Part shown: piece by piece, positions 2,554 through 30,386 of the stretch
Layout of the letters: every line of letters begins with the position of its first letter
How positions within the stretch are numbered: the first letter of the stretch is position 1
Source: Candidatus Scalindua sp.
Lineage (GTDB): Bacteria; Planctomycetota; Brocadiia; Brocadiales; Scalinduaceae
Direction of reading: 5' to 3'
NCBI GenBank assembly: GCA_031316235.1
Contig: JALDRA010000001.1
Location: forward strand, 1,770,001-1,802,000
DNA: 32,000 nt
Notes under the pieces: generated by a model
What the model was told of the DNA's origin: nothing
What the model saw: only the letters and a program-made list of their open reading frames with translations
The model's database searches: none
Translations under genes and position numbers: made by a program

Positions 2554-4092
2554 ATGTCAGAAGGAAAATCTGAAAAAGTCCTCCTGTGCCTCATGATTGC
2601 GGGAATACTCTTTGGTATTGCTATTGGAGGGTTTTTACCGGAAAAAGGGAAAGAAATGGCATTCATGGGAGAATTTTTCATCGGTTATCTAAAAATGCTT
2701 GTTATTCCGCTCGTCATTACCTCAATGATCTCAGGAGTTACCGGACTGGGAGATATCAGAAAATTAGGAGGATTAGGAAGGAAAACCATTCTTTACTATT
2801 TGGCAACAACGGGTTGCGCGGTCCTCATAGGGATTATTTTAGTTGTTATCATTGGCCCTGGAAGAGCAGATACAAAGGAGGAGCAGTTGAAGTTGCGGGG
2901 AGGATCTTCTTTACCGGAGTTATCTTATACCATACAAGGCAATCAAATTACGTTTGATGAAGCTCTGGAGAAAAACAGATATGATGAGAGGTACCTGATC
3001 ATTCTTCGTGATCAGGATGGAATCAGGGGGACTATCAGCGAAATGGAAGATGAAAACATTTGTATTGTTCGTAATTGGGTTCAGGTTGGGGGAGATAGCC
3101 ACAAAATAGCGGAAGCGAGACCAGAGGGAAAGGGAAAAGGAATCGATTTTGATCTATCGCTGTCAGATAAAGTTTTACACAAACAAGGGAAAACTATCGG
3201 CAGTACTTTAAAGGAAGTTTTATTAGGACTCGCTCCAGACAATCTCATCAAAGCGATGTCTGAGACAAAGGTCCTGCCTGTTCTCGTGTTTGCAATGATT
3301 ATAGGTGCGATCCTTACGACGCTTGGAGAACCGGGAAAACCCGTAATCGCTTTTTTTCACGGAGCAAATGAGGCAATTTTAAAATTCGTACAACTGTTAA
3401 TGCTTATAGCTCCTTTCGGAATCGCATGCCTTATCGCAGGCAAATTGGGGGACGCAGGGGGAATTGAAAAGTTCGGGCTTGAATTCAAAAAAATTGGATT
3501 CTATGCCATGACGGTACTTCTGGGATTATGCATACATGCAATTGTTGTCCTCCCGCTCATTTTGAAATTCTTTGCAAAACGAAATATACTATCGTATGCC
3601 CGGGGGGCAAGTTCCGCCCTATTAACCGCATTCAGTACCGCGTCGAGTTCGGCAACACTACCGGTAACCATCAAGTGCAGTGAAGACAACAATCAGGTTT
3701 CCCCAAGAGCAGCAGCCTTTGTTTTACCTCTTGGCGCTACTATCAACATGGATGGAACCGCCTTATATGAAGCGGTTGCGGCAATCTTTATTGCACAGTT
3801 ATATGGTATCGATTTAGGTATGGGACACTTGACAGTAATATTTTTAACCGCCACATTAGCAGCTATCGGGGCCGCCGGTATTCCTGAAGCTGGCCTGGTA
3901 ACCATGGTGATAGTATTGGAAGCAGTTGGATTGCCAATAGAAGGGATCTCGATGATTTTAATGATTGACTGGTTTTTAGACCGATGTCGTACTTCGGTAA
4001 ACGTATGGGGTGATTCTGTTGGGGCAGCGGTCATAGACAAAGGTTTAGAGGGTGAGTTGAAAAAAAAGTGTCTTATTGGCGGTGAGGGTTGA
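2554..4092 (+). CDS. Dicarboxylate/amino acid:cation symporter (DAACS/SDF family, GltP-like) with an enlarged TM3-TM4 loop
   Basis: 512 aa. Family signatures are present: TASSSATLPV, INMDGTALYEA and DRCRTSVNVWGD, plus multiple hydrophobic helices. AAGGA lies 7 nt upstream of the ATG. Confidence 0.85.
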   Translation: MSEGKSEKVLLCLMIAGILFGIAIGGFLPEKGKEMAFMGEFFIGYLKMLVIPLVITSMISGVTGLGDIRKLGGLGRKTILYYLATTGCAVLIGIILVVIIGPGRADTKEEQLKLRGGSSLPELSYTIQGNQITFDEALEKNRYDERYLIILRDQDGIRGTISEMEDENICIVRNWVQVGGDSHKIAEARPEGKGKGIDFDLSLSDKVLHKQGKTIGSTLKEVLLGLAPDNLIKAMSETKVLPVLVFAMIIGAILTTLGEPGKPVIAFFHGANEAILKFVQLLMLIAPFGIACLIAGKLGDAGGIEKFGLEFKKIGFYAMTVLLGLCIHAIVVLPLILKFFAKRNILSYARGASSALLTAFSTASSSATLPVTIKCSEDNNQVSPRAAAFVLPLGATINMDGTALYEAVAAIFIAQLYGIDLGMGHLTVIFLTATLAAIGAAGIPEAGLVTMVIVLEAVGLPIEGISMILMIDWFLDRCRTSVNVWGDSVGAAVIDKGLEGELKKKCLIGGEG

Positions 4093-18945: not shown

Positions 18946-21423
18946 TTACTTTTGAAATGCCTCAATTTTTAAAACAATTTTATTAATGGATGACACCGAT
19001 AACTCAATTGTCGGAACAAGAAAAGTTGCAAGGACAAAAACGTTTAAACTGGATATAGTGCTAAATCTCCCTTTTGAATCTTTAAAGGTATTGAAATTTT
19101 CCGTATCCGACACACTTTCTTCTCCCCATGACTTTTTCAGCCCGACGAGATTATTATATGCTGCTGATGCGGACGATTTGTCAGAATAGCGAACTATGAG
19201 AATTTTATATGGCAAACTGCTGCTCTCAGAATCAAACTCCGCGACAGCAGCATCCGTATCTTCGCTCAGATTTAATATGTTTTCTTTCATGAATGTATCG
19301 GCAATATAGATGTTATCAAGATTAATCTTTTCATGAAAGAACTTTATACTTCCGTTTCTCTGCCCCTCTTCAGGTATAAACTTTAAAATATCCGGTTCCT
19401 GGACATCACCGGACGGAAGAGTTTTTACCAGAGAAGCACCGAAAAATGTCAGATCGTCTGAGGTAATATTGTCCGTGTATGGTTCGATACTTACAAAATA
19501 CTTATCCTGCCATATCCACAGGTAATTTTCAAATAATGAAGCCTTGTGACCTATCTCCACATCATGACCCGCTTTATCCATGGCAAAGACACCAAAAGCG
19601 TCATCAGAATTACCAAATTCCCAGATATCGATTTTTATGGATTTTCCGGAAGCTTTTATATGATATTTTGCAGTAGATACGCGAATAAATGAGTAAGCCA
19701 GATAAGCCTCTGCGCCTCCATTAATATATTCAAAGAGCTTACTGCTGCCATGGTATATGTCAGGGCTTCCCTCTCTGTGCCACAAGGCAATCGATTCGGG
19801 GAGGAATCCATCCTCCCCCCTTTCTATCATTGTGATCTTTTCTTGGGGCTGTATCCCTTCGACAACAATTGCAGATTGACCGGATACCGGGCAAACCTTC
19901 TCACAGAAACCACATCCGATACATACATCTTCTCTTACAAATACCCTCCTGATCTCTTTACCATTTTCATGGAGGTAGGTATTAAAATGTATCGCTTTTG
20001 TGGGAACCGGGCAGACCTCTTCACATACACCGCAGTTGACGTCTTTCCAGTTTTTTTCGAGTTCCGGTAACCCTGCGTAAGCCACCCATGGGATACACCT
20101 GTTTCTGTTTATCCTGGCCTTGCCTATTGCCAATATTTGTTTTTTGTCTTTTGGAAGTTTCGTAATCGCTCCGGAAGGGCAAACTCTCGTGCAGAGCACA
20201 CAATCATACGCACAATATCCAATACGCGGAATCAGTTGCGGAGTCCACATCCCCTCTAAACCAGCTTCCAGGATCACAGGATGTAATCCATTTGTTTTGC
20301 ACACCCTCATACATTCACCGCATCTCATACATTTTGCTAAAAAGGTATTTTCCGGTTGTGCTCCCGGAGGACGGATAATGCAGAGATTTCCTCCTCCTTT
20401 TTTTTTGTGAAAGTTCAGTGATAAAAGCGGTGCTGAAACGATACTGGCAGCACACGCTGCAAAAAAGCCTCTCCTCGTTAAATCAACAGGCTGTGCCTGC
20501 TCCGCTGGCTGCCTTGATGTAAACCGGACTGCTCCCGTATGGCATATATCCTGGCATTTCATGCACAGGATACATTCACCATCCTGGGTTTTTTTCCCCG
20601 TCTCATCAATGGCTCCCATCTTGCATTCGACATTACATCTATTACACCCATCGCAAGCATTTTCCCCTACCACCCTCTTGAATAAAGACCAGTCTGATAA
20701 CAGAGAAAATAATGCTCCCAAAGGACAGAGATTTCGGCACCAATACCTTTTGTAAAACAGACCGAGGAACACAACGACCATAAAGAGTACCAGGAAGGAA
20801 AGGTGTCCCCTGAAAAAGGGAGCATGCAGGGCGAACAGTATCTCCTTTAAAAAGCCGTGTATTCCATCGCTTACAAAGCTAATGAAGGGGAAATCATGAA
20901 GGTAATTGAAGAGTGAGTTCAATATAGACACACAATAGGGATGAATAACGATGGTATATGCGTTTGTTGCAATGCTGAGCGGATCGAACCACCCAACCAT
21001 CTGGCTGCTGATAAATAAACTGAGGAGAAGAAAGCCTAAGAGATAAAATTTAAGCCTCTTCCCATCATACAATTTGGAGGAAATTTTATCTCTTTGTGAG
21101 GCGATCAGTTTATCCGTGGCGTCAAAGGTTGTACCGAGAGGGCATATCCAGCCACAGAAGAATCGGCCGAGGAAGAGAGATGCTAACAAAACAATTGCCG
21201 CAGGCCAGTACTGAATAATAAACTCTCTGGCAGCCACCATTGCCGCGACTGCTGAAAGAGGGCTTGACCGAAGAAAAAAGTTTACCGATCTATCTGTTTC
21301 GGCAATGGGGTCGGAAAATATGAGCAGGACAAGAAATAGAGTAAAAAGCATCCCCTGAACTATGAGCCTTATCTTATAAGCCAATGAGCCTGTTTTCGTA
21401 TATACCTTACGCTGTTTTGTCAT
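18946..21423 (-). CDS. Membrane-bound polyferredoxin: NapH/NosR-like membrane module + NapG/MauM-like 4x[4Fe-4S] module + ~300-aa C-terminal domain of unknown function
   Basis: 825 aa with several TM helices and two CxxxCP motifs (FFCGWICPLG, WCRNLCPLG). Fe-S motifs are CDGCNRCNVEC, CILCMKCQDIC, CMRCGECMRVC, CVLCTRVCP, CGVCEEVCP and CIGCGFCEKVCP. There is an internal LTRRGFFAACAAS followed by IRPPGA. The C-terminal region (LFEYINGGAEAYLAYSF...) contains no Cys motifs. Confidence 0.8.
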   Translation of the reverse strand: MTKQRKVYTKTGSLAYKIRLIVQGMLFTLFLVLLIFSDPIAETDRSVNFFLRSSPLSAVAAMVAAREFIIQYWPAAIVLLASLFLGRFFCGWICPLGTTFDATDKLIASQRDKISSKLYDGKRLKFYLLGFLLLSLFISSQMVGWFDPLSIATNAYTIVIHPYCVSILNSLFNYLHDFPFISFVSDGIHGFLKEILFALHAPFFRGHLSFLVLFMVVVFLGLFYKRYWCRNLCPLGALFSLLSDWSLFKRVVGENACDGCNRCNVECKMGAIDETGKKTQDGECILCMKCQDICHTGAVRFTSRQPAEQAQPVDLTRRGFFAACAASIVSAPLLSLNFHKKKGGGNLCIIRPPGAQPENTFLAKCMRCGECMRVCKTNGLHPVILEAGLEGMWTPQLIPRIGYCAYDCVLCTRVCPSGAITKLPKDKKQILAIGKARINRNRCIPWVAYAGLPELEKNWKDVNCGVCEEVCPVPTKAIHFNTYLHENGKEIRRVFVREDVCIGCGFCEKVCPVSGQSAIVVEGIQPQEKITMIERGEDGFLPESIALWHREGSPDIYHGSSKLFEYINGGAEAYLAYSFIRVSTAKYHIKASGKSIKIDIWEFGNSDDAFGVFAMDKAGHDVEIGHKASLFENYLWIWQDKYFVSIEPYTDNITSDDLTFFGASLVKTLPSGDVQEPDILKFIPEEGQRNGSIKFFHEKINLDNIYIADTFMKENILNLSEDTDAAVAEFDSESSSLPYKILIVRYSDKSSASAAYNNLVGLKKSWGEESVSDTENFNTFKDSKGRFSTISSLNVFVLATFLVPTIELSVSSINKIVLKIEAFQK

Positions 21424-21847: not shown

Positions 21848-22915
21848 ATGAAACACAAGAAAGTTAGTATAAAATCCGTGTTAAGAGACGACGTCTCTTT
21901 CTCTCCACCTTTTACGGTTTCTGATCTTCCTCATAAGGCGAAACTGGATCAGAACGAAGCGCCATTCGATCTCCCGGAGGATGTCAAGGAAATCTTGCTG
22001 GGCAAGTTAAAGGAGTGTGAGTGGAATCGCTATCCGCAGCCACTGATGTACACCGAAGTCAAAGTGGCCTTTGCCAAAACAATTGGATTCCCTCCGGAAA
22101 ATATAGTCCTAACTATTGGTTGTGATCAGCTCATTCAGGGTGCGTATCTTATTTCAGGGGGGCATGATCGGAAGGCCCTGGTTTTTGAGCCTACCTATCC
22201 AATGTTTTCCCATGCGGCCAAATTCAATCAGACAAAGGTTACCAGAGTCCAGCTTGCCGCTGATGAGGTGCTAACCAAAAACCATATCAGCAGGTCAAAC
22301 CATCATCTGATTTTTATTGTTGCCCCGAACAACCCGACAGGCACCATGCCGGGGGAGGGTATGATTGAAGCCGCTCTTTCGAAAGACTCCCTGGTGTTTG
22401 TGGACGAGGCATATGTCGATTTCTCCAAAAGGACATGGGCACACCTCATGAATGAGCACCCTAACCTCTTCATTGCCCGCACACTCTCAAAGTCCTGCAT
22501 GGCGGGAGTCCGCCTGGGTTATGGAATTGGTCATCCCGGCATCATTAATGCGTTGGAAACAGTGTTGACGGCTCCCTACCATTTGAGCTATTTTCAACTG
22601 GTAATTGCAAAACATTTCAACCTTATTCAGCCATATCTAAAAGATCTTTCAGGGTGTATTGTCTCTGAGAGAAAACGTGTGGAAGATACATTCAGTGAGA
22701 GGGGAGTCTCCTTTGTACCTTCCCAAGCCAACTTTATCCTCTTTCGGGCAAATGACCCATCAGCGGTTTTTCAACAGTTGGCAGAAGCGGGAGTACGTAT
22801 TCGCAGCCTCCATACCATTCCCGGTCTAGCAGGGTATGTACGGGTGACGATTGGAAAAAGGGAGGAGAACGACCTGTTCCTTGAAAAACTAGCTACCTGT
22901 AATGATCGCGTCTGA
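21848..22915 (+). CDS. hisC: Histidinol-phosphate aminotransferase (class II aminotransferase)
   Basis: KLDQNEAPFDLPEDV...WNRYPQP, APNNPTG, VFVDEAY and the PLP-lysine context TLSKSCMAGVRLGY. I chose the ATG at 21848, which has AAGGAG 7 nt upstream. An earlier ATG at 21830 is also possible. Confidence 0.85.
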   Translation: MKHKKVSIKSVLRDDVSFSPPFTVSDLPHKAKLDQNEAPFDLPEDVKEILLGKLKECEWNRYPQPLMYTEVKVAFAKTIGFPPENIVLTIGCDQLIQGAYLISGGHDRKALVFEPTYPMFSHAAKFNQTKVTRVQLAADEVLTKNHISRSNHHLIFIVAPNNPTGTMPGEGMIEAALSKDSLVFVDEAYVDFSKRTWAHLMNEHPNLFIARTLSKSCMAGVRLGYGIGHPGIINALETVLTAPYHLSYFQLVIAKHFNLIQPYLKDLSGCIVSERKRVEDTFSERGVSFVPSQANFILFRANDPSAVFQQLAEAGVRIRSLHTIPGLAGYVRVTIGKREENDLFLEKLATCNDRV

Positions 22916-24553
22916 CCTTGGTACTTTCTGAGATTCTTGAAAAACCCCTTCCATTCCTCTCGATGTCCTGACTCGCAGGGTTTCATTATCATCCTCATAG
23001 ACAATAATGCCTTCAACATCAGGGAGTTTTTCAATCAGTTTCATACCCTCCTCCAAACCCAGGACGAATACTCCGGTAGAGAGGGCATCGGCTTTGGTGG
23101 CATTATCTGCGATTATGGTAACACTTGCAATACCCTTAACAGGCCTGCCTGTCCTCGGATCAATAATATGAGAATATCTTTGACCATTTATTGTGAAAAA
23201 TTTTTCGTAATCTCCAGAGGTGGAAACTGCCTTATCGGTAATCTCAAAAGAACCGATAATATCCTTACTGTTTCGAGGATGTTGCAAACCGATAATCCAC
23301 GATTTCCTTCCGGGCGGCGAACCGCAGGCGTACACATTTCCCGCAAAATTTATTAATGCGGATCTTATCCCGTTATTGCGAAGCAGCTTCATTGCCGAGT
23401 CAACCGCATACCCCTTTCCAATCCCTCCCAAATCCACCTGGGTGTGAGGATTCTTAAATGATATGACCTTTTCAATGTTTGAACCCCGAAATAAAGACTT
23501 TTTAGAATTTTCTTCAATATGAATATTTTTATACGATACCGACCGGAGTACTGAATCCAACTCATCCTTGTCAGGTATCTTTCCCTGCTCCTTAAAAAAC
23601 CCCCACTTCTTCATAAGAGGCCCTATGGTTATATCAAAGGCCCCATTTGAGATATCTCCATACTGTATGGATTGTTCGATGATGTATGCAAGCTCATCGT
23701 CACAGGCAACCGGTTCTGATACCGCCTTTCGATTGATCTCTGACAGATCACTCTCTGTTTTATAATTGCTCATTAAATTATCGAGCCTGTTAACTTCATC
23801 AAAGACCTCATTAAATACCTTTTCGGCTTCACTTTTGCTCGAAACATAAGCAGAAATATCGAAAACTGTCCCCATGCTCATGATAGCTTTTTTGAGCAAT
23901 TTTGATTCTATTTTTCCCCTTTTTGCCTTGAACTCCACCTTTTTCAGCGAATTAACATCATTCTCTCTTTTTCCATCAAGATAGTACTCTTCAATTACCG
24001 CAAGTACTTTCTTGACACCCGTGCACATGGTAACGACAGACATGGTTGCCCCGGTGATATTAATGATATCCCGGTTAATCCGGATTCGATTCTTGAGGGA
24101 TTTCCCTTTAAACTGATGGAGAAATCTTTTATTCATGATCTCACTACCCCTGCTTTCCCGATAAACAAGAACGGCTATATGACGAATCTCACCTTCCGGA
24201 TTTGATGACACGATAAAGGTATAGGGGTGAAACTTCCCAACCTCTTCAGTAATTATTGCGTATCCTGCAACTACCCCTGACCTGATACCAATGTAAACAG
24301 TAAAACGGTCCTCAAATATCTTACGCTTCAGTCTCTTTTGAAGCCGGTTCTTTTCCTCTTCTGTAGGAATAATCTCTTCGTAAACGATAGAGTCACAATC
24401 GGGAAATGTCTGCTGAAGTGCCTGTTCCGGTGTAAGAAACACCTGAATATCGTAGCTCTCGGCAGGGTCGTCTTTGTAATCCGCCTCTACGCTCTGCCGG
24501 GCAGCAATACTAACAATTGCGATTAAAAATAACAGAGAAAGGGTTTTTTTCAT
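22889..24553 (-). CDS. apbE: Secreted fusion of an FMN_bind domain (NosR/NqrC/RnfG-type flavinylation target) and ApbE FAD:protein FMN transferase
   Basis: 554 aa with a signal peptide (MKKTLSLLFLIAIVSIAA). The FMN_bind region ends in NRDIINITGATMSVV, the S/T-G-A-T flavinylation motif. The ApbE region has MGTVFDISAY, AFDITIGPL, VDLGGIGKGYAVD and SHIIDPRTGRP. Confidence 0.85.
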   Translation of the reverse strand: MKKTLSLLFLIAIVSIAARQSVEADYKDDPAESYDIQVFLTPEQALQQTFPDCDSIVYEEIIPTEEEKNRLQKRLKRKIFEDRFTVYIGIRSGVVAGYAIITEEVGKFHPYTFIVSSNPEGEIRHIAVLVYRESRGSEIMNKRFLHQFKGKSLKNRIRINRDIINITGATMSVVTMCTGVKKVLAVIEEYYLDGKRENDVNSLKKVEFKAKRGKIESKLLKKAIMSMGTVFDISAYVSSKSEAEKVFNEVFDEVNRLDNLMSNYKTESDLSEINRKAVSEPVACDDELAYIIEQSIQYGDISNGAFDITIGPLMKKWGFFKEQGKIPDKDELDSVLRSVSYKNIHIEENSKKSLFRGSNIEKVISFKNPHTQVDLGGIGKGYAVDSAMKLLRNNGIRSALINFAGNVYACGSPPGRKSWIIGLQHPRNSKDIIGSFEITDKAVSTSGDYEKFFTINGQRYSHIIDPRTGRPVKGIASVTIIADNATKADALSTGVFVLGLEEGMKLIEKLPDVEGIIVYEDDNETLRVRTSRGMEGVFQESQKVPRSDAIITGS

Positions 24554-24559
24554 ATCTTA

Positions 24560-25048
24560 TCACGGTAGTCCTATTATATCTTCAACATGCGTTAAAAATT
24601 CTTCTTCCTTTTCACCTGTAGAGTGCACCCTCTGCCACCTATACGCAGCACTGCCCCCCCTGGGTTTTTCCTGAACCCTGCAACTTACGGCAACGGTGCA
24701 AAAAGTATTGTTACGGGAAACATTGACTATCAGACAATGCCTCTCTTGCCAATTGTCATCAAGAAATTTTCTCGTTAAAACACTTCTCGCATTTTTCTGT
24801 GACCATCCTTCAAGCCAGCCGCTCTTAATAAGGCCCTTATCTTTATCAATCTTTTCAAGCGGCATCCCATCCAATGCAATCACAGCAGCTGACCATAACG
24901 TTTCATAATCAACTTGAAAGGTCCTCAGATACTTCGAAGAGGAAGAGCTATTAGAAATATCCTTGCGCACCTGATCGCCAGCAGTGAAAAAGCAGCCTGA
25001 TAAAACCGGGACAAGAAATAGAGCGATGGAGAGAAGGATACTTTTCAT
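24560..25048 (-). CDS. Lipoprotein, unknown function
   Basis: MKSILLSIALFLVPVLSGC contains the lipobox L-S-G-C. Its stop lies 6 nt upstream of the ApbE-fusion start, so the two are probably co-transcribed. I used the ATG at 25048 rather than the upstream TTG at 25078. Confidence 0.55.
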   Translation of the reverse strand: MKSILLSIALFLVPVLSGCFFTAGDQVRKDISNSSSSSKYLRTFQVDYETLWSAAVIALDGMPLEKIDKDKGLIKSGWLEGWSQKNARSVLTRKFLDDNWQERHCLIVNVSRNNTFCTVAVSCRVQEKPRGGSAAYRWQRVHSTGEKEEEFLTHVEDIIGLP

Positions 25049-25248
25049 AATATTGCAAATGAGACTAAATTTCAGCAAAGAGATAGTAACAGAATTATTC
25101 TTCAGTTGTCAAGAAATTAAAATCGGAAAGCTGGGGTAATTAATGAATAGAGGCTGCATAGGGAGGCAGCTAAAAGGGGAGAGAGGTTGAACTGTTACAC
25201 GAGAAAACTGGAAGGTACAAAGTAACCTTGAAAAAGCTGCTGAGAGGA

Positions 25249-25485
25249 TTAACTTTTTTTTATGTGGATCTTAAATCCATCCTCGAACGGCTCAACCTTC
25301 ACGATCTTATGTCCATCTTCCTTGATACTCCGCGGAACATTGCGCATAGGCTCTCCGTCATCCAGCGTTACCTCCAGAATCTGGTCACTTTCCATCATCT
25401 CGAGCTTCAACTTTGTTTTAACAAAATTAATCGGACAGAGAACACCCCTCAAATCAATTTTTTCATTTCCTTCATTTCCACTCAT
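25249..25485 (-). CDS. TusA/SirA-like sulfur-carrier (sulfurtransferase) protein
   Basis: 78 aa. IDLRGVLCPINFVKTKLKLEMMESDQILEVTLDD matches the TusA pattern D-x-R-G-x-x-CP-x-P/N...G-x-x-L-x-V, including the conserved CP cysteine. Confidence 0.75.
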   Translation of the reverse strand: MSGNEGNEKIDLRGVLCPINFVKTKLKLEMMESDQILEVTLDDGEPMRNVPRSIKEDGHKIVKVEPFEDGFKIHIKKS

Positions 25486-25626
25486 CTGTCAAATATCCTC
25501 TCTGTTTTCTTCTTACGTTATACCAAATCCTGGTGAAGGTATACCCGCTCAAATTTATCTCGGATTTTATCCGAAATCCAGTATGAGATGAGTATATTCT
25601 ATGCATACGGCAAAGGGCTTACCTTT

Positions 25627-26043
25627 TTATTGCTCTATCTCTTCCTCAACCACTTTTCTCTTTTTGTCAAGATGCCAGGATTTAACTTCGGTATCCACTC
25701 CTTTGTTCACTGATATAATTACGTATGAGTATTCAGTCCATACGTAAGCGCACTCTTTATCAAAGTCCGATGGTGTCGGGGGGTGGTCCGGATGTGAGTG
25801 GTAGATGCCAATAATGCTTAACCCACCCGCGATTGCCTTTCGGTCTATCTCATCAAATGTTTTTGAGTCTATTTCGTACCTATCCTGTGCCCTCTCTGTA
25901 TTCCTGTTTTCAACTGGATGGATCTCATGCACGACTTTTCCAGCACCCGTGCTGCCCGTTAATATACCACAGCATTCAAATGGGTAAGAAGCTTTTGCCT
26001 CTTCCACTAGCCTGTTAACCAAATCCCTGCCTATGAAAATCAA
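25627..26043 (-). CDS. JAMM/MPN+ (Mov34) metalloprotease
   Basis: 138 aa. Glu in YPFECCGIL plus HSHPDHPPTPSDFD gives an intact E...H-x-H-x7-S-x2-D zinc site. TTG is the only canonical in-frame start after the upstream stop. Confidence 0.8.
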   Translation of the reverse strand: MIFIGRDLVNRLVEEAKASYPFECCGILTGSTGAGKVVHEIHPVENRNTERAQDRYEIDSKTFDEIDRKAIAGGLSIIGIYHSHPDHPPTPSDFDKECAYVWTEYSYVIISVNKGVDTEVKSWHLDKKRKVVEEEIEQ

Positions 26044-26155
26044 TGATTTTTCTCAAACATTCCTTCGGATCGTTGCATATTCCTGAACTGAGGATAATTT
26101 TTCCCCAAACCCTGCCTGATGCTAAGAGGCACCCCCCGTAGTTAAACCGAAACCA

Positions 26156-26572
26156 CTAAATATAAAGCTGCGTTTCAGCACCCTCGGCCATCTTCAGCAT
26201 CGTGGGCAAACCTATAATTTCATCCACCTTACTTTTTACCAATTCCTCGTCGAGCTCCATCAGCTTTACCGCCCCGCTGCATGCATAAATTTTCATATTA
26301 CCCATTGAGGCCACTTCCTGTAATATTTCCTTAAGCATATTTGAACTTCCCTGTGGAACGGCTTCCAGCAGACGCTTCTCTTCCTCCCGTATGTCAGCGG
26401 GAAACGTAATCTCATCCAATTCATCTTTTACGAACCTTCGCAGAGCCCAGAAGAATAAAAATATGTGGACACTGTTTCCCATGGAAGCAGCTGTTACCGC
26501 CAGCATTATGGCCTGATACAATTTATCGTATGCACCGCTGTGAAGAAAGAGGATAAATTTTTTTTCGCTCAT
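26156..26572 (-). CDS. DsrE/DsrF-like (COG2210-type) sulfur-relay family protein
   Basis: 138 aa. KFILFLHSGAYDKLYQAIMLAVTAASMG (Rossmann-like DsrE N-terminus) and a single Cys in MKIYACSGAVKLM. The ATG directly abuts the stop of the upstream reductase. Confidence 0.6.
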   Translation of the reverse strand: MSEKKFILFLHSGAYDKLYQAIMLAVTAASMGNSVHIFLFFWALRRFVKDELDEITFPADIREEEKRLLEAVPQGSSNMLKEILQEVASMGNMKIYACSGAVKLMELDEELVKSKVDEIIGLPTMLKMAEGAETQLYI

Positions 26573-27463
26573 CTATTCACCAGCAAAGTCCCGGGTAACC
26601 TCATCCTTAAATTCTTTAAGTCCCACACGATCAATCGTCTTTCCTATTCTTTCGCCTCTCTTCCCATTGCTATTATACCATTCAATGGTTTTACTGATAA
26701 AATCTGTGACCTTTTCATCAGGTAAAAATTTCACAATCTCGTCTGCTTCCCTGGGATGTCTTCCATGCCTTCCACCTGCACGGACGATCCAACCCTTCCG
26801 TTTTGCTGTCCATGCATCGGTTGGGCACACCTTAATGCAATCCCCGCACTGCACACACTTCTCGCTGTAAAAAACAGGCGTACCATCCTCATCGTCAACA
26901 ATGGCACCTTCGAGACAAGCCTTTGCACACAAGGTACATTTTGTACAGGGATCTTCCTCCCATTGTGGCGTTACCACTCCCTGAAACCCCAGATCCATTC
27001 CTTTTGTCCGGGCACAATCAATCGGACAACCCGAAAATGAAGTCTTGAATTTATGATGACACTCAGTACCAAAAAGCTCTCTATCTACTTCCAGCGCTTT
27101 TTTCTGGGCATCCATAATCCCGTTTGGATTATACTCACAACCACCACATGCAGTCGGTACCCGGACACGAGGGCCGCAAGAAGCAACCTCCTGCCCGAAT
27201 TCAGCCAGATCCTTTACTATAGCGTCAAAATCATCGATATGTACGCCAATAATCTCAACAGATTGCCTGAAACTCAGATGACAATATCCCATTCTGCTAT
27301 ACTTCTTGGCAACTTCAGCAATCTTTGCCATTTTATCTATGTCAAGCCTGCCGCCAGGCACTCGCAACCGGACCGTAAAAAGGTCCTTCTGGGTCTGTTT
27401 TATAAATCCGCCGGATTTTAATTCTTTCAAGTTAACTCTTTTCCCATCTGTACTCTCAGTCAT
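26573..27463 (-). CDS. Small nitrite/sulfite-reductase-family (siroheme-type) protein with an inserted 2x[4Fe-4S] ferredoxin domain (AsrC/Dsr-like small type)
   Basis: 296 aa. FTVRLRVPGGRLDIDKMAKIAEVAKKY is the NIR_SIR ferredoxin-like half-domain pattern. Cys clusters are PTACGGCEYN and SFSGCPIDCARTKGMDLGF. The ferredoxin insert has CTKCTLCAKAC and CVQCGDCIKVCP. AAGGAG lies 6 nt upstream of the ATG. Confidence 0.75.
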   Translation of the reverse strand: MTESTDGKRVNLKELKSGGFIKQTQKDLFTVRLRVPGGRLDIDKMAKIAEVAKKYSRMGYCHLSFRQSVEIIGVHIDDFDAIVKDLAEFGQEVASCGPRVRVPTACGGCEYNPNGIMDAQKKALEVDRELFGTECHHKFKTSFSGCPIDCARTKGMDLGFQGVVTPQWEEDPCTKCTLCAKACLEGAIVDDEDGTPVFYSEKCVQCGDCIKVCPTDAWTAKRKGWIVRAGGRHGRHPREADEIVKFLPDEKVTDFISKTIEWYNSNGKRGERIGKTIDRVGLKEFKDEVTRDFAGE

Positions 27464-27702
27464 TCAGCACTCCTTAAGTCTGATAAAAAACTCAATGTAA
27501 TTCACTGTCTAATATGATAAATAGTATCAACAATAGGAATATGTTGCAAGGAGAAAAAGCTCCTGCCCATTGAAGAGCCGTGGCTTGAAAAATGAACTGT
27601 TTAAGACAGAACTTTTCAATAAGGATAGTATACCTTACCCGTACGAGTCGGAAACTGTAAAGGATAATCTATCAGCCTTCCTCTCCGGCTCATGTCTCCG
27701 TT

Positions 27703-28326
27703 TCACTCAAAAATAATTTGCCTCATCTTCGTTTCTGCTTCTTTTGCCCCCCTGGTCTTCACGATCTCCAGCATATCATTCTCCGCCAGCCGTTGGAGTA
27801 TCTTTCTCCGTTTCAGGTCGTCCGTAACCTCTGATAGTGCTAACGTACGCATCTTTGTTAACAAAATTATATACTCTTCATACTCTGAGATAAATATTTC
27901 CTCTAATTTACTTCGAATATTTTTGGCAAGAGCAGGGCTTGCCCCGCCGGTTGAAATGCTGATGCAAAGATCTCCCCTGTTTATGGTTGAAGGAACTGTG
28001 AATGAGCACAGTTCCGGGCAATCAACTACATTTACCTGTATATTTCTCTTCCCTGCATCTATCGCAATTTTTCTGTTAACCTCCTGGTTATCTGTAGCAG
28101 CAATAACAAGGAAGGCGTCATCGATAAGGCCCTCTTCATAATTTTTCTTTATCACCGTGAGCCCGTTTCGCTTCACAATGTCTGAACAGACATCCGGACT
28201 TATCACGATTACGTCTGCCCCTGCATCTTGTAAACTGCACGCCTTACGATAAGCGACCTTCCCCCCTCCAACAATTACACACCTTTTCCCTCTGATATCC
28301 AGATAAACAGGATAAAATCTCGCCAT
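27703..28326 (-). CDS. sirC: Precorrin-2 dehydrogenase / sirohydrochlorin ferrochelatase (siroheme synthase N-terminal-domain type, SirC/Met8-like)
   Basis: 207 aa. YPVYLDIRGKRCVIVGGGKVAYRKACSLQDAGADVIVISP is the canonical NAD-binding start of the CysG-N/SirC family. GGAGG lies 6 nt upstream of the ATG. Confidence 0.8.
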   Translation of the reverse strand: MARFYPVYLDIRGKRCVIVGGGKVAYRKACSLQDAGADVIVISPDVCSDIVKRNGLTVIKKNYEEGLIDDAFLVIAATDNQEVNRKIAIDAGKRNIQVNVVDCPELCSFTVPSTINRGDLCISISTGGASPALAKNIRSKLEEIFISEYEEYIILLTKMRTLALSEVTDDLKRRKILQRLAENDMLEIVKTRGAKEAETKMRQIIFE

Positions 28327-28384
28327 TCGTTTCCTCCACCTCTTTCATCGAGTTTCAATTATACAACTTCTGGTTTCAACGACT

Positions 28385-28481
28385 AAGCTAACCCGCTTGG
28401 CAAACAAAACTTTTAATGATAATTAAAATGATCAAAGAATCTAAAAACATAAAAACTACACAAGACAAAGGGGGTTAGCTT
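28385..28481. repeat. 10-bp perfect inverted repeat flanking a 77-nt AT-rich spacer
   Basis: AAGCTAACCC (28385-28394) and GGGTTAGCTT (28472-28481). It lies between the sirC start and the DUF2442 stop. Confidence 0.8.
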
Positions 28482-28491
28482 CAGAGACTTG

Positions 28492-28755
28492 TTATGATTT
28501 TATATTATTTTCATACAAATGCGCAATTGGGAAGCAAAGATCATAGTCATTCCACTCTAAATCACCATTATCAGTTTTAAATTTTTTAAATTCCTGTTTG
28601 TCTAAATATTTTCTTATTAAAGGATTTAATGAACTATTTAAGAATGGAAAGAAATCTACTAATTGAATCGTGTTATTATTAAATGATAATTTAATCTTAT
28701 ATTCTCCAATGTATTCAGCAGAAATGATTGTAATAACCTGGTCATCAAAAATCAT
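28492..28755 (-). CDS. DUF2442-family small protein
   Basis: 87 aa. The pattern ...YKIKLSFNNNTIQLVDFFPFL....F..L.D...F..F....GDLEWNDYDLCFPIAHLY fits the DUF2442 consensus as I recall it. The start overlaps the upstream reading frame (ATGA). Confidence 0.7.
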   Translation of the reverse strand: MIFDDQVITIISAEYIGEYKIKLSFNNNTIQLVDFFPFLNSSLNPLIRKYLDKQEFKKFKTDNGDLEWNDYDLCFPIAHLYENNIKS

Positions 28756-29056
28756 TTTACTTTCCTTTCAATAATTTCACATGAAATATGTTTATGCAAA
28801 ACAAAATAATCAATCCATTTTTGAACAATTTTGTCAGCATAGACGTTAACAAATTTTTCAAAGTCTCTTAAAATATTTGCAGGCAATGGGCCCGTCCTTT
28901 TACAGACTTAATAATAACACTTTCTACTTTTCCCTCTTTAATTATTAAGTCTGCCTTAGACTCTTTCCCTTGATATTTGCCATGGACGTGAACCGGTTCA
29001 TGATCATTGCTATAGAATATTATGACTATCCCGCAATATACGTATATTTTAGGCAT
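28752..29056 (-). pseudogene. DUF4160-family gene split by a frameshift
   Basis: The 5' part (29056-28868) reads MPKIYVYCGIVIIFYSNDHEPVHVHGKYQGKESKA..., the DUF4160 DH-x-P-x-H-x-H motif, and ends at TAA 28868-28870. A second frame, open over 28907-28752, reads ...GPLPANILRDFEKFVNVYADKIVQKWIDYF...*. It ends in the ATGA overlap with the DUF2442 start. Confidence 0.6.
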
Positions 29057-29558: not shown

Positions 29559-30386
29559 CTATTTTTCTTTGTACAAGTCCAATTCAGAATAAAGTTTCTT
29601 TGCGCAATCTGGGCATATACCATGACTGAATTCTGCCTCTGAATGGTCTCGGATATATGACTCAATTTGGTTCCAGTATCCTTTGTCGTCACGGATATTT
29701 TTACACGATGCGCAAATTGGCAAAAACCCTTTAAGCATTTTCACCTCTTTCTTCAACAGCTTCAGTTTGGTAATATCTCTATTGCTCCCGCGGATGCCGC
29801 GATTCTCACCTCTTTCATCGTAAACATTTCTAGAGACGTGATCAATCCAACGGGTTTCTCCCGATTTAGTTGTAATACGAAATTCAACGGAATCAATCTC
29901 ACCATCTTTTGACATTCCGTGATGGTAAGCTTCCCATTTTCTCAGGTCATCGGGATTAATAATTTCTTTTAACAACTCTTTATTTTGATAAAATTCCCAT
30001 GGGGAGTAACCAGTGATTGTCGCACAGGATGGTGAAATATAGAGAAAAGATTTGTCTAAACCTTCCCAATACTCGCAATCGTATGAAAATTCTGCAATTA
30101 GACGAAATTTTTGTTCGCTTTCGAATAGCTCATTTTTCAATATATTAAAATCTTCATTTAATTTTAAATTATTATTTGTATAGGCTGATAGTGGTTTATA
30201 AACAAACAGAAAAAGAAGTGGAACTAAAAGGAGTGCATGAATAGTTACGGCAATAATAACCAGATTTGTTTTAGTGGTTACTGTCTGATAAGCTATAAGT
30301 AAGCCAATTGCTTCAGCTACGAGTGCAGAAAGAATTATAATTAAAAGCGTACATCTCGGGAGTTGCTCAATACGTTTTAGAAACAT
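29559..30386 (-). CDS. Membrane-anchored PAS sensor with a C-terminal Cys/His-rich (CxxC...H...CxxC) module instead of a known output domain
   Basis: 275 aa. Two N-terminal TM helices are followed by a PAS fold (SEQKFRLIAEFSYDCEYWEG...YISPSCATITGYSPWEF...EFRITTKSGETRWIDHVSRNVYDERGENRGIRGSNRDITKLK). The C-terminus is LPICASCKNIRDDKGYWNQIESYIRDHSEAEFSHGICPDCAKKLY. Confidence 0.75.
   Translation of the reverse strand: MFLKRIEQLPRCTLLIIILSALVAEAIGLLIAYQTVTTKTNLVIIAVTIHALLLVPLLFLFVYKPLSAYTNNNLKLNEDFNILKNELFESEQKFRLIAEFSYDCEYWEGLDKSFLYISPSCATITGYSPWEFYQNKELLKEIINPDDLRKWEAYHHGMSKDGEIDSVEFRITTKSGETRWIDHVSRNVYDERGENRGIRGSNRDITKLKLLKKEVKMLKGFLPICASCKNIRDDKGYWNQIESYIRDHSEAEFSHGICPDCAKKLYSELDLYKEK

Follow-up and report, generated by a model that had tools for sequence, protein, structure and literature searches.

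The sulfite reductase cluster of Candidatus Scalindua: a probable anammox form of a carrier-protein-dependent sulfur-assimilation operon

Introduction

Which pathway is served by five adjacent genes whose products are usually met in different ones? The question is raised by a cluster within a 32,000-nucleotide stretch of the genome of Candidatus Scalindua sp. (assembly GCA_031316235.1, contig JALDRA010000001.1, positions 1,770,001 to 1,802,000), referred to as the window throughout. Here, genes for a SirC-like enzyme of siroheme synthesis, a small siroheme-[4Fe-4S] reductase (Sir), a DsrE-like protein, a JAMM/MPN+ zinc peptidase and a TusA-family sulfur-relay protein follow one another on the minus strand. 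Anammox bacteria account for much of the nitrogen that is lost from the sea and are difficult to cultivate, and to our knowledge their sulfur assimilation has barely been examined.

The original prediction for this locus delimited the five open reading frames (ORFs) and the three gaps between them, all of which we recover at the same coordinates (Table 1). Classification with the hidden Markov models (HMMs) of Pfam and NCBIfam upheld each of its five domain assignments. It further proposed that sulfur passes from the reductase through a cysteine relay to a carrier protein encoded elsewhere, which is handled by the JAMM enzyme. This idea is largely supported by the comparative evidence, since relatives place the reductase, TusA and JAMM genes beside CysM, a carrier with residues after its Gly-Gly (GG) end and an E1 enzyme without rhodanese domain; the distal partners in Scalindua itself we continue to infer.

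Its view that a pathway of this make-up had yet to be described is not supported. The operon class was already described by Iyer, Burroughs and Aravind in 2006 (Genome Biol 7:R60, PMC1779556, Table 1 row 4e). The Scalindua cluster is a trimmed, lineage-specific form of this described gene set, with which bacteria reduce sulfite and route its sulfur via small carrier proteins to cysteine or methionine, and not a new pathway. Probably, it represents the anammox (Brocadiales) form of a sulfate/sulfite-assimilation operon that feeds protein-thiocarboxylate-dependent synthesis of cysteine or homocysteine.

A small reductase with the sulfite-binding residues of Fsr

What does the reductase reduce? 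The protein consists of one NIR_SIR_ferr plus NIR_SIR repeat (66 and 92 bits in Pfam), into which a ferredoxin domain with two [4Fe-4S] motifs is inserted (Fer4 dicluster families at residues 169-222; C173-x2-C176-x2-C179-x3-C183 and C203-x2-C206-x2-C209-x3-C213-P). All eight cysteines of the inserted domain are invariant in 14 homologues. Its NCBIfam scores of 139 bits for AsrC, 83 for DsrB, 82 for NirB and 33 for CysI agree with the earlier placement of the protein closer to AsrC, Dsr and Fsr than to CysI or NirB. Among solved structures, the protein matches the C-terminal half of Fsr best (7np8/7npa, residues 342-612), with 117 bits (E 1.7e-32) at about 29% identity. An AlphaFold2 model of moderate confidence (predicted local distance difference test, pLDDT, of 71, low in the cofactor loops) retrieves Fsr as the top Foldseek match, followed by DsrB, DsrA and the assimilatory sulfite and nitrite reductases.

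In Fsr, sulfite is bound by Arg355, Arg423, Lys460 and Lys462, and Arg388 marks assimilatory-type chemistry (Jespersen et al. 2023, PMC10229431). The aligned residues in the window reductase are R32, R101, K138 and K140 for the binding site and R66 for Arg388, and all five are invariant in the 14 homologues, down to 61% identity. Since the sulfite-binding residues and the Arg388 equivalent are all kept, sulfite is favoured as substrate, and the alignment argues for its being what the enzyme would reduce.

Nitrite had been offered as an alternative in the original prediction. Could the enzyme mainly turn nitrite into ammonium, or detoxify sulfite in the manner of Fsr, its link to sulfur-relay genes being regulatory or incidental? 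Siroheme sulfite reductases including Fsr do reduce nitrite as well (PMC10229431), Fsr is a detoxification enzyme, and anammox bacteria are exposed to high nitrite. Yet Group II Fsr, to which a different specificity is ascribed (PMC10229431), has other residues in place of two of the arginines, and both positions that are changed in these nitrite-specialised or uncharacterised enzymes are kept and invariant in the window family. The conserved neighbours are, moreover, all sulfur-assimilation genes, in three phyla, and the reductase is tightly linked to a cysteine-relay protein. With the sulfite-binding arginines and lysines complete and a genomic context of sulfur assimilation, nitrite reduction or detoxification as the main role appears very unlikely.

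Going by its sequence, the reductase is predicted to be of the Fsr-C-like or Group III Dsr-like protein (Dsr-LP) type. The likeness to the C-terminal domain of Fsr and to Group III Dsr-LP lies in the sulfite-binding arginines and lysines, in the arginine of the assimilatory trait and in the best match by both sequence and fold. A Group III Dsr-like protein contains a siroheme-[4Fe-4S] core, one peripheral and one additional cluster (Susanti and Mukhopadhyay 2012, PMC3448663). Unlike Fsr, the window reductase is free-standing, and its siroheme-cluster motif, C106-x2-C109...C146-x3-C150, does not match the canonical CX5C...CX3C. The stretch PTACGGCE, which contains the C106-x2-C109 pair, is invariant in the family, as is an extra Cys96. 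In all, 1938 homologues of the reductase were found. Residues 96-109, which read 'SCGPRVRVPTACGGCE', are invariant and comprise both this cysteine and the C-x2-C pair; CX5C is found there in Fsr and in assimilatory sulfite reductases. This non-canonical CX2C cluster motif is a new feature of the reductase family.

Two closer identifications were considered and rejected. AsrC itself would require 324 bits against TIGR02912, for which the window protein reaches 139, and neighbours resembling AsrA or AsrB were found in no locus. Fsr proper is rejected likewise, as the 296-residue protein aligns to Fsr residues 342-612 only and lacks the FrhB-like F420H2-oxidase half.

Conservation of the cluster

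Is the block more than a chance neighbourhood? Relatives were gathered by scanning one genome per species with an alignment of the reductase, and the best 80 of 332 were kept. ORFs were called in every locus and assigned by means of profiles built on the window and two annotated relatives, and architectures were counted in 59 non-redundant loci with enough downstream sequence. The nearest reductases, at 95% amino-acid identity, belong to Candidatus Scalindua sp. SCAELEC01 and RBC_AMX3. Candidatus Scalindua comes first in the order of relatives and the other anammox Brocadiales next, followed by Deltaproteobacteria/Thermodesulfobacteriota and Nitrospirota.

The commonest arrangement, SirC-Sir-DsrE-like-CysM-JAB-TusA, occurs in 28 loci from Kuenenia, Brocadia, Jettenia, Loosdrechtia and others, and thus places a CysM gene between those for the DsrE-like and JAMM proteins. 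The window form, SirC-Sir-DsrE-like-JAB-TusA, is seen in 10 loci: the window, eight of the Scalindua/Scalinduaceae type and one unclassified metagenome-assembled genome of Planctomycetota (L035). About 10 further loci of other Brocadiales type carry Sir-CysM-JAB-TusA or near variants. In Deltaproteobacteria and relatives, 10 loci read ThrC-like-Sir-TusA-ThiS-like-NIL, seven of which continue with CysM-JAB-ThiF. Overall, the reductase is accompanied by TusA in 56, by JAB in 54, by CysM in 45 and by a DsrE-like protein in 41 of the 59 loci, which makes TusA its most constant partner.

The block recurs over about 60 genomes; order and strand are unchanged in about 40 anammox genomes and are partly kept across three phyla. 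The five Scalinduaceae genes show ratios of nonsynonymous to synonymous substitution rates (dN/dS) of 0.04-0.16 where synonymous sites are unsaturated, indicative of purifying selection. The zero spacer noted earlier between the reductase TAG and the ATG of the DsrE-like gene (26570-26575) is present in the window, and of the 12 other Scalindua loci with sequence across this junction, 10 show the same abutment.

Because synteny is conserved and all five genes are under purifying selection, the block is a functional unit and not a chance neighbourhood, which also answers the conservation check proposed with the original prediction. A juxtaposition of five unrelated genes could draw on the gaps of 112-239 bp, which leave room for separate promoters. 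It is effectively refuted by the synteny: order and strand persist in the anammox genomes and in part over the three phyla, under purifying selection, and in Brocadiaceae conservation is confined to the cluster and some flanks. We regard chance as extremely improbable.

The operons of relatives and a described class

The deltaproteobacterial reductases are 62-67% identical to that of the window. The full set of genes in these clusters, all on one strand, encodes a ThrC-like enzyme, Sir, TusA, a SAMP1/MoaD-like carrier, a NIL-domain protein, CysM, JAB and a MoeB-like E1. Several loci continue with a variant radical-SAM gene (after the E1), a Na/sulfate symporter, 3'-phosphoadenosine-5'-phosphosulfate (PAPS) reductase and ATP sulfurylase. 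CysM proteins of the relatives score 375-381 bits against TIGR01138; the deltaproteobacterial one, at 381, just misses the cutoff of 394 and passes that of the cysKM subfamily (354 against 344).

The deltaproteobacterial carrier has 92 residues and scores 60.6 against the SAMP1 cutoff of 60, and it lies above the archaeal MoaD cutoff, too. E1 genes are present in seven of the loci; the copy in L003, the sole one scanned, encodes a MoeB-like protein of 274 residues without rhodanese domain. In 13 of 15 ThiS-labelled ORFs (12 of 14 when non-redundant), the C terminus of the carrier reads AIAGG with one or two residues after it. Given these residues after the GG, a C-terminal peptidase is required.

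Two further genes of the deltaproteobacterial clusters deserve mention. The clusters open with a ThrC-type enzyme (TIGR00260, 294 bits; L003:6646-7887, also L066-L086), and beside the carrier they encode a free-standing NIL-domain protein of 78 residues (L003:9574-9810, also L066-L086). The presence of these genes suggests carrier-dependent synthesis of homocysteine alongside that of cysteine.

How does this compare to what has been described? TusA-family proteins appear in the older literature under the name SirA. The operons of row 4e, whose hosts include Geobacter metallireducens and Wolinella succinogenes, combine a ThiS/MoaD-like carrier, JAB, E1, SirA, sulfite reductase, PAPS reductase and ATP sulfurylase, and it was predicted that SirA replaces the rhodanese in them (PMC1779556). 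The window shares with this class the sulfite reductase, a JAB/JAMM protein with intact metal motif and a SirA/TusA protein with its conserved cysteine. The deltaproteobacterial relatives of the window reductase occupy exactly such operons, with carrier, rhodanese-less E1, PAPS reductase and ATP sulfurylase. In contrast, the window and all Brocadiales loci have no carrier or E1 in the cluster, and Scalindua also lacks the pyridoxal-phosphate (PLP) dependent sulfhydrylase; SirC and the DsrE2B-like gene are added, and genes for sulfate activation are not adjacent.

Biochemical precedents for such a route are said to exist in two systems (Burns et al. 2005; Krishnamoorthy and Begley 2011). The CysO-CysM-Mec+-MoeZR pathway of Mycobacterium tuberculosis reportedly makes cysteine in a protein-thiocarboxylate-dependent manner, and the HcyS-HcyD-HcyF-Sir-MetY pathway of Wolinella succinogenes is reported to do the corresponding job for methionine. 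The pairing of JAMM with a CysM-type enzyme in sister lineages resembles both the CysO and the HcyS pathways. The carriers of the relatives with residues past the GG resemble HcyS-Ala of Wolinella, where the sulfite reductase is in the same operon as well. The E1 of the relatives differs from MoeZR in having no rhodanese domain, and the M. tuberculosis system contains nothing that corresponds to TusA or to the DsrE2B-like protein.

SirC, JAMM and TusA

The remaining proteins of the cluster can be classified with similar detail. SirC exceeds its TIGR01470 cutoff of 62 with 160 bits and also matches PF13241 and PF14824. Its gene is directly upstream of the reductase gene in 41 of the 59 loci, all of them from anammox-type Brocadiales, and its dN/dS is 0.08-0.15.

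The JAMM protein matches Prok-JAB with 87 bits, and the zinc motif that had been read as intact is so (E22 and H82-x-H84-x7-S92-x2-D95). Across the clusters, E...HxHx7SxxD is canonical in 60 of 64 JAB proteins. Among solved structures, 2kcq (72 bits) and Pyrococcus JAMM1 (5ld9) are nearest, and dN/dS is about 0.16. The length of the protein varies: six Scalindua-type relatives (L006 at 3210-3848, L011, L012, L014, L015 and L016) encode a form of 223-246 residues with a hydrophobic C-terminal extension of about 85 residues and two to three predicted membrane helices, whose end overlaps the start of TusA. The window, L007, L008 and L009 encode a short form of 138-150 residues and have a spacer of 40-141 bp (in the window, that between JAMM and TusA) where the extension otherwise sits. 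A membrane-anchored peptidase of the Mec+ type would be unusual.

TusA matches PF01206 with 74 bits, and the Cys-Pro cysteine reported for it is Cys17, in a VLCP motif. The LCP cysteine is present in 73 of 73 TusA proteins of related loci, and dN/dS is 0.04-0.08.

The DsrE2B-like protein and the question of a direct hand-off

The DsrE-like protein exceeds the PF13686 (DrsE_2) cutoff of 25 with 46 bits and misses the NCBIfam DsrE2 equivalog (32 against 210 bits). As reported earlier it has a single cysteine, C98, within IYACSGA. The family profile matches Sulfolobus SSO1126 (2qs7) over its full length (E 2.7e-19, 28% identity), with the cysteine aligned, and Foldseek with the AlphaFold2 model (pLDDT 85) returns the same structure as top match at a template modelling (TM) score of 0.79. 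This structure was named DsrE2B by Tanabe et al. (2024, PMC11094781). C98 is invariant, also in relatives at 30-49% identity.

The family is small. Of 1.84 billion cluster representatives, all of them searched, 251 match at E <= 1e-3 and 2 reach E <= 1e-30, and all organism-named ones among the 158 matches of a word-indexed search come from Scalindua or other Planctomycetota. What is new here is that this rare DsrE2B-like gene is anammox-specific and, together with SirC, tightly linked to the reductase. The cluster resembles the DsrE2B/DsrE3-TusA cascades of sulfur oxidisers (Liu et al. 2014; Tanabe et al. 2024, PMC11094781) in that a DsrE-fold protein with a conserved active-site cysteine is encoded with TusA. 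It differs in its assimilatory context of sulfite reductase, CysM and JAMM in place of sHdr or rDsr oxidation.

Could the reductase hand its product directly to this protein? By analogy with DsrAB and DsrC, no sulfide would be released; a persulfide or trisulfide would form on the cysteine of the DsrE2B-like protein (or of TusA) and would be passed on from there, either to the carrier or into other pathways of thio-cofactor synthesis. A gene for a cysteine-relay protein does follow the reductase gene immediately in most lineages: the DsrE2B-like one in anammox bacteria, 0 to about 30 nucleotides away, and TusA in Deltaproteobacteria and Nitrospirota, where the genes overlap or abut. The Dsr-like architecture, which placed DsrB and DsrA next after Fsr in Foldseek, the non-canonical cluster motif and the extra Cys96 can be read the same way, and transfer of sulfur from DsrE to TusA is documented in sulfur oxidisers (PMC11094781).

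Against such a hand-off, however, Arg66 corresponds to Arg388 of Fsr (Thr in DsrA), an assimilatory trait that goes with full six-electron reduction, and the non-anammox Brocadiales have CysM, and no relay protein, right after the reductase. We consider the hand-off unlikely. An assimilatory counterpart of DsrAB-DsrC, in which sulfite reduction with the DsrE2B-like protein and then TusA would yield protein-bound persulfide, is improbable to the same degree. If true, it would provide a first function for the orphan DsrE2B family, and anammox bacteria would assimilate sulfur without releasing sulfide in the cell.

A proposed route and the missing partners

The reading we prefer, in which the cluster serves sulfur assimilation through a protein thiocarboxylate, can be laid out as a sequence of steps. 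We observe what the genes are, which motifs they encode, that their order is conserved, and that in relatives they occur together with genes for CysM, the carrier, E1 and sulfate assimilation. From there we infer which way the sulfur flows, what the DsrE2B-like protein does, what JAMM acts on and that Scalindua has the partners elsewhere in its genome. SirC would make the siroheme for the reductase. The Fsr-C-like reductase, supplied with electrons through its two-cluster ferredoxin domain, would then take sulfite to the level of sulfide, and the sulfur would be captured by the DsrE2B-like protein and by TusA, each through its cysteine.

TusA, presumably substituting for the rhodanese domain absent from the E1 of this operon class, would pass the sulfur to a ThiS/MoaD/CysO-like carrier adenylated by E1, giving the carrier thiocarboxylate. 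A CysM-type PLP enzyme could turn this thiocarboxylate into a carrier-cysteine adduct. Finally, JAMM may trim the residues past the carrier GG, free the amino acid and so regenerate the carrier, or do both. In Scalindua, the carrier, E1 and CysM would have to be encoded outside the cluster.

Where are these partners? The absence of a beta-grasp, GG-terminated ORF, of E1 and of CysM from the cluster and its gaps, as first noted, stands. No ORF of at least 20 residues in 25080-28520 is beta-grasp-like or GG-terminated, and HMM and tblastn searches found no PALP, ThiS/MoaD-like or ThiF/E1 gene in the entire window. Likewise, clustering of the ORFs in 64 Brocadiales-type loci, the window included, revealed no small gene on the same strand that is conserved within the cluster. 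In the 112-bp gap, where a remnant of cysM might be sought, tblastn at E <= 10 gave only noise for the window and 13 other Scalindua-type loci. Extra genes in the relatives L029, L051 and L037 were tried as carrier or E1 candidates and rejected, being toxin-antitoxin-like, carbamoyltransferase-like and similar. Two CysM homologues at 66-68% identity that we examined are again within Sir-CysM-JAB-TusA clusters.

Several points weigh against the preferred route. The carrier and E1 are absent within 10 kb of the cluster in every one of about 60 Brocadiales loci, CysM is absent over the same distance in every Scalindua locus, and the best 120 CysM homologues (at least 65% identity, with a Brocadiaceae CysM as query) include none named Scalindua. 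The siroheme-cluster motif of the reductase departs from the canonical pattern. Further, free sulfide is the product to be expected from a reductase of the assimilatory type, and it can attack an acyl-adenylate unaided by a protein relay, so that TusA and the DsrE2B-like protein are not chemically required. Finally, we know of no demonstrated activity for DsrE2B.

The loss of CysM also invites the thought that the Scalindua module has been diverted from cysteine to tRNA thiolation, molybdenum cofactor (Moco), thiamine or a SAMP-like modification, with JAMM as an isopeptidase of the desampylase type. TusA of Escherichia coli feeds tRNA thiolation and Moco synthesis, and neither CysM nor a remnant of it was found in the window and the 13 other Scalindua-type loci tested. 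The best NCBIfam match of JAMM is, at 77 bits, the haloarchaeal desampylase, and the deltaproteobacterial carrier clears the SAMP1 cutoff. The JAMM score is, however, below the desampylase cutoff of 130, the remaining genes are orthologous to and syntenic with the CysM-containing version, and a dedicated sulfite reductase would be a large outlay for trace amounts of cofactor sulfur. Such a diversion seems unlikely.

For an assimilatory role, the history of the lineage offers a further line. The genes sat, aprAB and 'fsr' are reported to have been gained together at the origin of anammox bacteria (Liao et al. 2022, PMC9387917). The 'fsr' of that study is presumably the gene of the window reductase, and its joint gain with sat and aprAB is consistent with a reductase that completes sulfate assimilation there.

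Gene layout, spacers and neighbouring genes

The coordinates of the cluster, its spacers and the neighbouring genes are collected in Table 1. The spacer between SirC and the reductase, which is of like size in relatives, may contain a promoter for the four downstream genes. It has a weak terminator-like hairpin at 27579-27558, which is not above chance expectation, and promoter-like and terminator-like sites are not commoner than in shuffled sequence. Neither the three spacers nor the window as a whole gave any Rfam match at E <= 1, to a riboswitch or to another kind of RNA.

Table 1 Features of the cluster and its surroundings in the window
Feature	Position	Strand	Remarks
SirC / CysG-N-terminal-like precorrin-2 dehydrogenase and sirohydrochlorin ferrochelatase	27703-28326	minus	207 aa; TIGR01470, PF13241 and PF14824
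Small siroheme-[4Fe-4S] sulfite reductase (Sir), predicted	26573-27463	minus	296 aa; NIR_SIR_ferr, NIR_SIR, Fer4 dicluster
DsrE2B-like (DrsE_2) single-Cys protein	26156-26572	minus	138 aa; PF13686
JAMM/MPN+ zinc peptidase, Mec+/HcyD/desampylase type	25627-26043	minus	138 aa, TTG start; Prok-JAB
TusA/SirA-family sulfur-relay protein	25249-25485	minus	78 aa; PF01206, Cys-Pro motif
Spacer SirC/reductase	27464-27702	minus	239 bp
Spacer DsrE-like/JAMM	26044-26155	minus	112 bp; cysM-like gene here in most other Brocadiales
Spacer JAMM/TusA	25486-25626		
Large membrane polyferredoxin	18946-21423	minus	825 aa
ApbE flavin transferase	22889-24553	minus	554 aa
Small lipoprotein-like gene	24560-25078		
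DUF4160 and DUF2442 gene pair	28492-29056	minus	62 and 87 aa
Membrane PAS-domain protein	29559-30386	minus	275 aa

Directly upstream of SirC is the DUF4160 and DUF2442 pair, which has a toxin-antitoxin-like look; small mobile pairs resembling it break up the cluster in the relatives L051 and L029. Further upstream, a PAS-domain protein carries a Cys-rich tail (CASCKNIRDDKGYW...HGICPDC) that replaces the kinase domain. On the other side, the ApbE flavin transferase begins with a region that resembles FMN_bind and RnfG, and the small gene downstream of it is DUF3576-related. The polyferredoxin combines NapH-like Fer4_5 repeats with a 4Fe-4S dicluster domain and DUF6599.

In Brocadiaceae the surroundings are different. 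There (L001:11286-16891 and most other loci), a Rieske/cytochrome b (bc-type) complex with multihaem cytochromes always follows the cluster, and argH and lysA precede it. Scalindua is without these flanks.

Implications for anammox sulfur assimilation

What does the cluster tell us about its hosts? Under the preferred reading, the anammox 'fsr' gene would be tied to a specific route, the carrier-protein (thiocarboxylate) pathway, and a DsrE2B-type protein is put in a defined assimilatory context beside its likely partners. The carrier and E1 lie outside the cluster in all Brocadiales loci, as does CysM in Scalindua, an arrangement that is new. The comparison also allows more accurate names for genes of these genomes that are now annotated as '4Fe-4S binding protein', 'peroxiredoxin family protein' or 'dissimilatory sulfite reductase'. 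In Scalindua, cysM has been dropped from the cluster, and JAMM and TusA have nevertheless been retained under selection.

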